Positions 62,376 through 63,532 of a stretch of 64,000 nucleotides of DNA are shown one piece after another. The stretch is from Escherichia phage vB_EcoP-ZQ2. Each line of letters begins with the position of its first letter. Within the stretch, counting starts at the first letter, position 1. The DNA lies in sequence record NC_070874.1, one strand, 5' to 3'. The notes under the pieces were generated by a model. It saw only the letters and a list, made by a program, of their open reading frames with translations, did not search any database and was not told the DNA's origin. The position numbers and the translations under genes are program-made.

Positions 62376-62438
62376 TTAACTCAACGCATAGTCTGTTTCA
62401 AGAATGTCCTGCCAGAGGCTGTCATCCAGCTTACCAGC
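62376..62438 (-). CDS. putative 3' exon of split T7-like RNA polymerase (N4 RNAP II large subunit-like) gene; boundary approximate
   Basis: encodes ...[20 protein letters not shown]-stop, matching the T7 RNAP C-terminus ...LPAKGNLNLRDILESDFAFA as recalled from memory. Confidence 0.45.
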   Translation of the reverse strand, partial: [20 protein letters not shown]

Positions 62439-63532
62439 AGAGAACTCTTGCCCCAGTACCTGAGACAGGATGAAGCCCAGCAAGTCACTCTTAGCAATGT
62501 CAGATAGAATCTGATTGTACTGACGACGCAGGTCATTACCGTAGTTAGGATGACATCTAAAACCATTAGTTAAACGAGTCGTTAGCTCGCCCTTACCTTC
62601 CATGATTAACATGGAAGCCATACGTAGCATCTGCTTCTTTACGAGCAAGCATTGCCTCCTCAAGTGTGTCATACGTACCCAGACCAATCTGTTTACGATT
62701 GACTGTGATGTGTGCCTGGAATCTACCAGAAGGCAATATTCTTACACCATTCACTTTGCTTGATGTATTACGTGATAAACCCATATTCATCTGGTTCTGT
62801 CTACTGGTTACATTTCTCAGATTAGACCAACGGTTGTCGTTTCTAATGTGATTGATGTGATCCACCTGGTTAGGTGTTTCCCCTGTTTCCATTATCCAGA
62901 TTATTCGATGCAGTAAGTACTCTTTACGACCCAGACTAACAGATAAATAGCCTTCTTTGTGAGGATACCCCACAATTGTTCCGGCTAATCCACTAGCAGA
63001 GTCGAAACGATGAGTTACTAGCCCACTTTCTCTGTCATACCTTAAAACCTTCTTCAAAGATTCTCGGGTAATGGTATCCAAGTCTTTTATCAGGTTCTTA
63101 CAGGTAGGGCATAGGTGGCCTATTGGACTCTTTTTAGCATCATAGAAGTTGCAAACAAACTCATTAGAGCATTGCTTACAACTACAGATAGCTGTGTACT
63201 TACCAGTTTTACGTAATATTTGGGAGTTATCTAACATATGGATTCCTTAGTAATTTTGCATACAATTTCAGATTGTATCCTAACCAAGGAAGTAAGTCTC
63301 CGGTTTTCACCGGAGTATCGGACTATATCATCACCCACTAATCAGTGGGGCAAGGCGCTTGGGTGGTCACTTGACTCACCTACTCTACTCACATACGAAA
63401 TGTTTTCGATAGTCTCTGAACCTTCCCTCATGGAGGGCTTGGCTGCTGATTGGCATATCCATAGGACTTAGCTTTCCAGCAATTCACCTTGTTTTCGACA
63501 CGGATTACTCCGTGAAGGATCATTTATGTTTA
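62439..63532 (-). mobile_element. group I intron with HNH homing endonuclease ORF, inserted in the RNA polymerase gene (boundaries approximate)
   Basis: on minus strand in order: P2-like GNRA hairpin (63499..63514), P element GAATTGCTGGAAAGC (63471..63486), Q CCAATCAGCAGCC (63441..63453), R GGTTCAGAGACTA (63407..63422), P8 hairpin (63334..63349), S GATATAGTCC (63320..63329), P9 hairpin (63298..63315), then HNH ORF. Confidence 0.7.
62593..63237 (-). CDS. intron-encoded HNH homing endonuclease with N-terminal CxxC zinc-finger-like motifs
   Basis: ...YLSVSLGRKEYLLHRIIWIMETGETPNQVDHINHIRNDNRWSNLRNVTSRQNQMN...; CSCKQC and CPTC at N-terminus. Confidence 0.75.
   Translation of the reverse strand: MLDNSQILRKTGKYTAICSCKQCSNEFVCNFYDAKKSPIGHLCPTCKNLIKDLDTITRESLKKVLRYDRESGLVTHRFDSASGLAGTIVGYPHKEGYLSVSLGRKEYLLHRIIWIMETGETPNQVDHINHIRNDNRWSNLRNVTSRQNQMNMGLSRNTSSKVNGVRILPSGRFQAHITVNRKQIGLGTYDTLEEAMLARKEADATYGFHVNHGR

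Follow-up and report, generated by a model that had tools for sequence, protein, structure and literature searches.

The genome of Escherichia phage vB_EcoP-ZQ2 (ZQ2; NC_070874.1) was analyzed over a stretch of 64,000 nucleotides (nt), in the following called the window, of which a 20-kb part is about 93-94% identical to Gamaleyavirus coliphages (G7C-like, N4-like; Schitoviridae). Close to one end of the window the minus strand carries a gene that is, according to sequence comparison, RNAP2, the gene for the large subunit of RNA polymerase II (RNAPII) and a homolog of N4 gp16. Its coding sequence is broken by 968 nt, and the break is very probably due to a mobile self-splicing group I intron, which encodes its own HNH endonuclease and interrupts RNAP2 behind the codon for the catalytic aspartate.

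The partial exon 1 (63532..64000, minus strand) reaches the window edge and ends with ...PFPVMTVHD and T63532, the first base of a cysteine codon. Its DNA is 91.5% identical to the intronless RNAP2 of phage PBM-2, a contiguous gene of 405 codons that is annotated as 'RNA polymerase RNAP2'. Exon 2 (62376..62563, minus strand) starts with GT TTT, i.e., with the two nucleotides that finish the cysteine codon, which are followed by 61 codons and the stop codon. It is 92.0% identical to PBM-2 at the DNA level, and the encoded 62 residues (CFRCHPNYG...ETDYALS) are 100% identical to the C-terminus of PBM-2 RNAP2. All 15 DNA differences in exon 2 are silent, and both exons are, as judged from such comparisons, under clear purifying selection. 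PBM-2 RNAP2 in turn can be aligned with the large subunit of N4 RNAPII over its whole length (PDB 6dt7_B; residues 1-405 on 1-404, E 7e-191), which has VHDCFRC at the matching place and the C-terminus ...LETEYALS. N4 gp16 is a structurally characterized T7-family enzyme and harbors motifs A, B, and C, and N4 middle transcription needs RNAP2 (Lenneman and Rothman-Denes, 2015; PMC4496689). The two joined exons of ZQ2 are in frame and would yield a full-length subunit of 405 amino acids, with VHD-C-FRCH at the junction, as in the intronless relatives, and ETDYALS at the end.

The first-pass annotation had drawn attention to the last 20 codons of the open reading frame (ORF) 62376..62687 as the C-terminal motif of an RNA polymerase (RNAP), encoded 1.1 kb downstream of the apparent stop codon of the upstream ORF. 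Translation confirms that the upstream ORF stops at 63530, 1.09 kb before the motif. The motif had also been located rightly, only the range 62376..62440 was 2 nt too long, because 20 codons and the stop codon amount to 63 nt (62376..62438, minus strand). It is the counterpart of ...DILESDFAFA in T7 RNAP, the end of which had been given correctly (the protein of NC_001604 ends with ...LPAKGNLNLRDILESDFAFA). The C-terminal residues of T7 RNAP are essential for catalysis, and the catalytic aspartate of that enzyme is D812. The similarity that had been noticed was recovered by local alignment with a shuffle control, which was used for the T7 C-terminus in place of BLASTP. The best alignment of the last 20 residues lands on T7 residues 872-883 (RDILESDFAFA) with six identities in 11 positions, a score that was equaled anywhere in the 883-residue T7 RNAP by 16 of 2000 shuffles. 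The C-terminal 73 residues of the spliced product are collinear with T7 810-883 in a local alignment that places VHD|CF on IHD812SF (T7 810-814, motif C) and the C-terminal end on T7 873-883. The sequence similarity to T7 is weak alone, and homology rests on N4 gp16 instead. T7 RNAP and N4 gp16 share with ZQ2 RNAP2 motif C, (V/I)HD(C/S)F, and the C-terminus DILE(T/S)D(Y/F)A(L/F)(S/A); their coding sequence is contiguous over the junction, as it is in about 97 phage records, whereas it is interrupted in ZQ2.

Comparison with the orthologs N4 gp16 and PBM-2 bears out the proposal that the gene for the RNAPII large subunit has a 3' exon with the motif at its end. The exon extends over 62 codons (62563..62376) and thus over more than the last 20. 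As ligation of the exons would give the full RNAP2, the 20 codons are the genuine polymerase C-terminus. N4 gp16, PBM-2, and seven spliced homologs all end with [DENT]-Y-x-[LI]-[STC], so that related polymerases without the terminal motif, which would have spoken against the proposal, did not appear; the readable C-termini in the intron family are DYALS, NYCLS, TYILT, EYPIC, EYAIS, EYALS, and NYSLS. The remaining part of ORF 62376..62687 had been regarded as read-through of the 3' end of an intron, and 62564..62687 is indeed intron sequence. The first 41 codons of this ORF overlap the 3' end of the HNH endonuclease gene in a different frame, and by its position the part upstream of 62563 is fortuitous read-through.

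A strong terminator had been described directly behind the motif, in agreement with the sequence of the intrinsic terminator at 62334..62369 (minus strand), which reads AGCCTCATTCC TTCG GGAGTGAGGCT, followed by TATTTTTTGC. Its hairpin (62369..62344) starts 7 nt past the stop codon 62376..62378 and has a stem of 11 bp with six G-C pairs and a loop of 4 nt, followed by a T-run. This terminator behind exon 2 ends the RNAP2 gene.

Boundaries and fold of the predicted intron

The boundaries of the intron (62564..63531, minus strand), which runs from A63531 to the terminal G62564, were derived from the DNA comparison with PBM-2 and from the spliced translation. The removal points are U63532|A63531 and G62564|G62563. 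At the junction the uninterrupted DNA of PBM-2 reads ...CATGATTGCTTCCGT... (in a longer stretch ...ACTGTACATGATTGCTTCCGTTGCCAC...), and its counterpart in ZQ2 is ...CATGATT|intron|GTTTTAGA..., with the upstream break ...ACTGTACATGATT|AAACATAAATG... and the downstream break ...TTTAACTAATG|GTTTTAGATGTCATCC.... The ligated exons are predicted to read ...CATGATT|GTTTTAGATG.... The insertion is thus located 1 nt after the codon for the catalytic aspartate of motif C, the equivalent of T7 D812, and exon 1 ends with GAT T (...VMTVHD). An in-frame stop codon TAA (63532..63530) straddles the 5' splice site, and therefore ribosomes on unspliced RNA would halt before the ribozyme.

The paired element P1 (63518..63535, minus strand) is formed by the exon bases GAUU (63535..63532) and A63531 with the guide UGAUC (63522..63518). 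This 5-bp hairpin, GAUUA/UGAUC, is predicted by ViennaRNA and contains U63532•G63521 as the wobble pair that marks the 5' splice site. The intron ends with G62564 (omega-G). A candidate P10 of 4 bp (G•U, U-A, U-A, U-A) was read from the sequence, between the guide bases U63522 and A63523-63525 and GUUU of exon 2; suggestively, intronless alleles (GCUUC) would be unable to form it.

The ribozyme core from P1 to P9 (63298..63541, minus strand) matches the Rfam model RF00028 (Intron_gpI) with 91.8 bits at a gathering score of 50 (E 1.2e-23) over model positions 1-253 of 253, and nothing else in the window reaches the gathering threshold of this model. Compared to the Rfam consensus, 50 nt are inserted between P7 and P3', which form two hairpins. 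In the Michel-Westhof classification, subgroup IA is marked by extra paired elements, P7.1 and P7.2, which separate the 5' half of P7 from the 3' half of P3, and the two hairpins look like these elements. The 3' tail of the intron (62564..62592, minus strand) consists of a short hairpin (CGAG...CUCG, with UAACG in the loop), followed by UUUAACUAAU and the terminal G62564.

Splicing would proceed as follows. The early transcript would hold exon 1, the intron, and exon 2, and a ribosome on the unspliced RNA would stop at the TAA across the 5' splice site. The ribozyme would fold, and pairing of its guide with GAUU at the end of exon 1 would create P1, including the U•G pair at the splice site. 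Exogenous guanosine would attack after U63532, the terminal G62564 would dock, and exon 2, aligned by the 4-bp P10, would be ligated. The ligated product would be the mRNA for the full RNAP2 subunit of 405 amino acids.

Related introns and the endonuclease gene

A query of 2.2 kb around the intron matched 55 Gamaleyavirus phages, all but one of them in two pieces with a coverage of about 55%, and those relatives therefore lack a segment of about 970 nt that is present in the window. The intron is carried by one of the 55 related records in the phage collection, and the junction is contiguous in about 97 records. In Shigella phage Moonfish (L001) an intron of 968 nt has the same boundaries and is 94.2% identical; the GenBank entry lists no intron and three coding sequences, i.e., RNAP2 subunit A, an HNH endonuclease, and an 'RNA polymerase' starting from an internal ATG. 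RNAP2 is also interrupted by a related intron in Pseudomonas phage ZC08, Erwinia phage MIF8 (L003), and Pseudoalteromonas phage pYD6-A (L006). The Rfam group I scores are 82-94 bits for the homologous introns L001, L003, L004, and L006, and 88.9 bits for ZC08.

A DNA pattern search with exon plus ribozyme identified six IMG/VR contigs and six metagenome contigs, each with an RNAP exon ending with (V/I)HD directly upstream; one of the six IMG/VR contigs has a junction identical to that of ZC08 and is not independent. For seven family members, including ZQ2, an automated search located a 3' splice site with which the RNAP2 frame is regained; their introns measure 962-988 nt. The automated exon-2 finder required a histidine at FRCH, and homologs with leucine (FRCLPNYG, as in N4) were recovered by manual inspection of the frames: in L013, L014, L015, and L018 an exon 2 (GFRCLPNYG... 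or GFRVLPxYG..., ending with YALS or YSLS) lies downstream of the endonuclease gene, with unmapped 3' splice sites.

The introns occupy two sites. Site A (GAY-T, within the Cys codon) is used in ZQ2, Moonfish, ZC08, and most contigs, about 10 metagenomic N4-like ones. Site B, which is located 3 nt downstream (GAT-GCG-T, within the Phe codon), is used in MIF8 (about 2486-3447), pYD6-A (about 2182-3152), and the IMG/VR contig L008 (3300002231_000757). The exon sequence is GAT GCG T|TC at site B versus GAT T|GT TTT at site A, and the guide is GCGC versus GAUC. The two sites might reflect either a target-site shift in one intron/endonuclease lineage or independent invasions of neighboring positions.

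The guide covaries with the exon. At site A the combinations are GAUU/GAUC or GACU/GGUC in 11 of 11 introns, depending on the third base of the Asp codon, and this set includes near-identical introns that differ solely by the double change of GAT/GAC and guide. At site B GCGU pairs with GCGC in all three introns. This covariation argues for a functional ribozyme. The candidate P10, read from the sequence, has 3 bp in ZC08 and L011. In the core, RNAalifold found compensatory double changes at 25 of 57 pairs among five RNAP2 introns, which supports the fold well, although a small set of related sequences does not amount to a formal statistical test; the two hairpins between P7 and P3' covary as well (alignment columns 162-180 and 196-214). 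The stems of the tail hairpins are wholly different in MIF8, ZC08, pYD6-A, L008, and L011 (UAGCAG/CUGCUA, UUAAGG/CCUUAA, AUUGG/CCAAU, CGAGA/UCUCG), and the UARCG loop and the terminal G are kept in all six introns compared, including that of ZQ2.

Some members of the family have features of their own. The polymerase of L008 is devoid of the N4-type insertion of about 90 amino acids between HSxDG and HD and looks more T7-like. RNAP2 of pYD6-A contains a second, ORF-less group I intron (1593-1840, Rfam 74.1 bits) between ...SLAA and NVIHSIDG; therefore, the gene would consist of three exons, and it is annotated as a separate 'RNA polymerase' and a hypothetical coding sequence. The RNAP2 intron of L014 (ERZ650310 NODE-351) is about 1.6 kb long and has two tandem endonuclease ORFs about 176-1575 nt past the 5' splice site, of which a GIY-YIG-like ORF (MQGHIYKITNQVNGKVYVGQT...) lies upstream of the usual HNH ORF. 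In L017, a metagenome contig of 24.6 kb (ERZ808240 NODE-1879), the first 60 nt of the intron are identical to ZQ2 and the exon-1 protein is clearly different, a hint of a recent lateral spread of the ZQ2-type intron.

The homing endonuclease gene of ZQ2 (62593..63237, minus strand) is an intact ORF after P9 and encodes a protein of 214 amino acids with an HNH_3 domain (Pfam PF13392; 57.5 bits at a cut-off of 24.8, E 1.1e-15, residues 107-150) and an AP2-like region. Its closest relatives are all encoded in RNAP2 introns, i.e., those of Moonfish (93.5% identity), ZC08 (49.8%), pYD6-A (45.5%), and MIF8 (42.6%). A sequence search of the PDB gave no match, and no solved or characterized close homolog turned up. 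The gene has its own Shine-Dalgarno sequence, AAGGA (63248..63244), which is predicted to be paired with UUCCUUGGU just past P9 (segment 63230..63291, minus strand; minimum free energy -15 kcal/mol, z -1.8). Such a hairpin could restrain the translation of the endonuclease, like that of T4 intron ORFs, albeit with weak statistics. The enzyme presumably is an active endonuclease, and its candidate target is the PBM-2/G7C-type sequence ACTGTACATGATTGCTTCCGTTGCCACCC, the intron-linked variant of which is GTTTTAGATGTCAT.

The comparison of ZQ2 and Moonfish yielded DNA identities of 83.4% for exon 1, 94.2% for the intron, and 75.4% for the downstream region. Within the intron the identities are 98.3% for the ribozyme, 92.1% for the endonuclease gene, and 100% for the tail. 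The patchy distribution and the divergence, which is smaller than that of the flanks, suggest that the intron is mobile. The HNH(-AP2) enzyme presumably would cut or nick intronless RNAP2 genes of co-infecting phages near the insertion site, and repair would copy the intron and a short tract of the flanking exons into the cut allele. Of the 15 differences between exon 2 and PBM-2, six are crowded into the 14 nt that open the exon (Fisher p 2e-4, segment 62549..62563). They are all synonymous and turn TGC TTC CGT TGC CAC of PBM-2 into TGT TTT AGA TGT CAT of ZQ2, and most of these six junction variants are common to ZQ2 and Moonfish. The cluster fits a co-converted tract and/or selection for P10 pairing and endonuclease resistance. 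An intronless allele with the exon-2 signature of ZQ2 was not found in the phage collection, in which the best match was 93.1% over 116 nt.

Differences between close relatives are also seen at another locus. An HNH endonuclease gene directly follows the gene for a gp24-like ATPase in Moonfish (6918-7201) and PBM-2 (6200-6233). ZQ2 is devoid of it, and the ATPase ORF (59129..60181) leads straight into an ORF of 402 amino acids (57946..59154). Therefore, the homing endonuclease content of close relatives varies at other loci, too.

A hydrophobic ORF of 71 amino acids with a GTG start (62136..62351, minus strand; probably about 61 amino acids from an ATG) adjoins the RNAP2 terminator and is followed by a second terminator-like hairpin (62118..62137, minus strand). 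It is kept in Moonfish and PBM-2 as a 'hypothetical protein'. The only tRNA gene in the window (34872..34946, minus strand) encodes a tRNA-Ile with the anticodon AAT (ARAGORN; Rfam tRNA 62 bits), which is unusual in bacterial systems.

Alternative explanations for the interrupted gene

The self-splicing group I intron is the explanation with by far the highest probability, and it draws on features that were computed here, namely, the fold of the intron and its precise boundaries, the frame that is regained by its removal, the covariation, the patchy distribution, and the lower divergence of the intron compared to its flanks. Several points weigh against it. We infer splicing itself from the sequence, and RNAP2 is visible only in part, as about 187 N-terminal codons lie beyond position 64000 of the window. 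Motifs A and B (T7 D537 and K631) fall within these codons; both occur in the PBM-2 homolog. P10 has just 3-4 bp. The ribozyme is located wholly 5' of the endonuclease gene and only 29 nt follow that gene, so that a fold across about 700 nt is required. The match of the endonuclease to the AP2 domain (PF00847, residues 160-198) has 22.5 bits and thus is under the cut-off of 33.3 (E 1.4e-4). As to the polymerase itself, the likeness of the last 11 residues to T7 has modest statistical support, and BLASTP of T7 RNAP versus intronless RNAP2 aligned the region of motifs A and B only and not the C-terminus. Pfam gave no match for the partial spliced product, and the RNA_pol match of full-length PBM-2 RNAP2 is confined to residues 8-148; therefore, Pfam is uninformative on the C-terminus. 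The arrangement of a ribozyme before the ORF is known from other phage introns.

The gene could be expressed in pieces in the absence of splicing. A free-standing endonuclease insertion would then have split RNAP2, and the exon-1 product of 343 amino acids would assemble non-covalently with a second polypeptide, translated from ORF 62376..62687 or from an internal ATG, in a similar way as gp15 and gp16. ZC08 has been viewed in essentially this way (Amgarten et al., 2017). A gene in pieces would be in line with the three separate coding sequences in the GenBank annotation of Moonfish, with the designation of such genes as split or disrupted (PMC5418858; PMC4496689), and with the fact that N4 RNAPII already is a split T7-like enzyme. 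However, a complete, high-scoring group I ribozyme is found exactly at the break, the boundaries comply with the rules for U•G and a terminal G and bring the frame back with single-nucleotide precision, and the covariation between guide and exon is inexplicable without splicing. Two polypeptides would also part the catalytic aspartate from the next residues of motif C. Moreover, the exon-2 boundary has neither a Shine-Dalgarno sequence nor a start codon, and translation from one of the candidate starts, which lie out of frame within the endonuclease gene, would put 15-41 unrelated residues in front of it. We consider a gene in pieces to be improbable.

It is still considerably less probable that the element is a decayed insertion, with an intron that has ceased to splice and an RNAP2 that has lost its function, or that the genome is defective or an assembly chimera. 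Nothing specific speaks for this, apart from the location of the 5' part of the gene beyond the window, whereas the requirement of RNAP2 for N4 middle transcription (PMC4496689), the purifying selection on both exons, the intact endonuclease ORF, and the conservation of the ribozyme (98.3% versus 75-83% for the flanks in the comparison with Moonfish) speak against it. In addition, the same intron is carried by Moonfish, which has been isolated and forms plaques, and ZC08, MIF8, and pYD6-A are plaque-forming isolates as well. ORF 62376..62687 might also encode an independent small protein with a merely T7-like end, and the shortness of the T7 likeness (six of 11 identities, 16 of 2000 shuffles equal) is compatible with a chance resemblance. 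However, its last 62 codons specify a protein sequence that is 100% identical to the end of the contiguous PBM-2 RNAP2 and collinear with N4 gp16, and its first 41 codons overlap the endonuclease gene out of frame. A chance resemblance, to which we give hardly any credence, was rejected based on the identity to PBM-2, the DNA comparison of the boundaries, and the alignment with N4 gp16.

Relation to known phage introns and implications

Group I introns with endonucleases at catalytic sites are well known from phages, e.g., in the T4 genes td, nrdB, and nrdD/sunY, in the DNA polymerase genes of SPO1/SP82 and Bastille (I-HmuI/I-BasI), and in the DNA polymerase gene of the T7-like phage ΦI/W31. 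The ZQ2 intron shares with them an IA-like ribozyme with hairpins between P7 and P3', splice sites with U•G and a terminal G, the insertion into the most conserved coding sequence of an active site, an in-frame stop codon at the start of the intron, a sporadic distribution, and an endonuclease ORF of the free-standing type with its own Shine-Dalgarno sequence. As in sunY, the ORF is found past P9 and close to the 3' end, and not in P6 or P8. The ribozyme core is 71-73% identical at the DNA level to sequences within Felixounavirus-like DNA polymerase genes. In contrast to those introns, the host gene in ZQ2 encodes an RNAP of the T7-family single-subunit type, the large subunit of N4 RNAPII. 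Overall, the makeup is that of a typical mobile group I intron that encodes an HNH homing endonuclease, and the placement, within the best conserved part of the catalytic region of an essential enzyme gene, is the usual one.

An intron in a phage RNAP gene is not without precedent. The HNH endonuclease gp210 of ΦPA3 is encoded by an intron in the gene for an RNAP subunit of this jumbo phage. It is directed against the allele without intron in a related phage that infects the same cell, and it plays a part in the competition between phages (Birkholz et al., 2024; PMC11620839). Both ΦPA3 and ZQ2 have an essential RNAP gene with a group I intron that encodes an HNH endonuclease, and ΦPA3 is a precedent in which the competitive role has been tested. 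However, the ΦPA3 polymerase is a multisubunit β/β'-like enzyme, which is unrelated to T7/N4 RNAPII, and for the element of ZQ2 a competitive role is putative.

Earlier reports or suspicions of group I introns in N4-like phages concern td, gp24, the DNA polymerase gene, and gp43. A 'split gp16' has been remarked on (Lenneman and Rothman-Denes, 2015; PMC4496689), and it has been reported that a homing endonuclease 'disrupts' RNAP2 of ZC08, from which the authors speculated how heterodimeric RNAPs may have originated (Amgarten et al., 2017; PMC5418858). RNAP2 of ZC08 is broken at the same codon as that of ZQ2 (GAC T|GT TTT) by a related intron with a related endonuclease (49.8% identity). Both publications treat the gene as split or disrupted, and neither names a group I ribozyme or splice sites. 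A search of the open-access literature did not reveal a description of an intron in RNAP2 of N4-like phages or other Schitoviridae, nor of an intron in the T7/N4-type RNAP gene family.

The novelty is modest and consists of a host gene family that had not been described before as intron-bearing, of an intron family that is widespread but unannotated, and of two positions 3 nt apart. Tentatively, a wider interpretation might be considered, in which this is the first recognized lineage of group I introns in T7-family RNAP genes, a widespread Schitoviridae element at motif C with two sister lineages 3 nt apart that arose by a target-site shift within a single pair of active-site codons. Its endonuclease would perhaps be a weapon like gp210 of ΦPA3 against the middle-transcription polymerase gene of intronless N4-like co-infectors, and splicing would be an early-to-middle checkpoint. 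We regard this combination as possible and rather doubtful.

Mobile group I introns in the active sites of phage polymerases are textbook knowledge, and current concepts are unchanged. The consequences concern annotation: a single spliced RNAP2 gene should be entered for ZQ2, Moonfish, ZC08, MIF8, pYD6-A, and a dozen contigs from metagenomes, instead of the current truncated polymerase, endonuclease, and orphan 'RNA polymerase' or hypothetical ORF. In addition, the counts of 'split gp16' that have been used in arguments about the origin of two-subunit RNAPs would be corrected. The phage genes colonized by group I introns now extend to the T7/N4 single-subunit RNAP family, and the family, in which introns and their endonucleases occupy either of two sites with a spacing of 3 nt, is a natural set for studying target-site drift. 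The findings also suggest that there may be a testable endonuclease-mediated competition among N4-like coliphages that are candidates for therapy.

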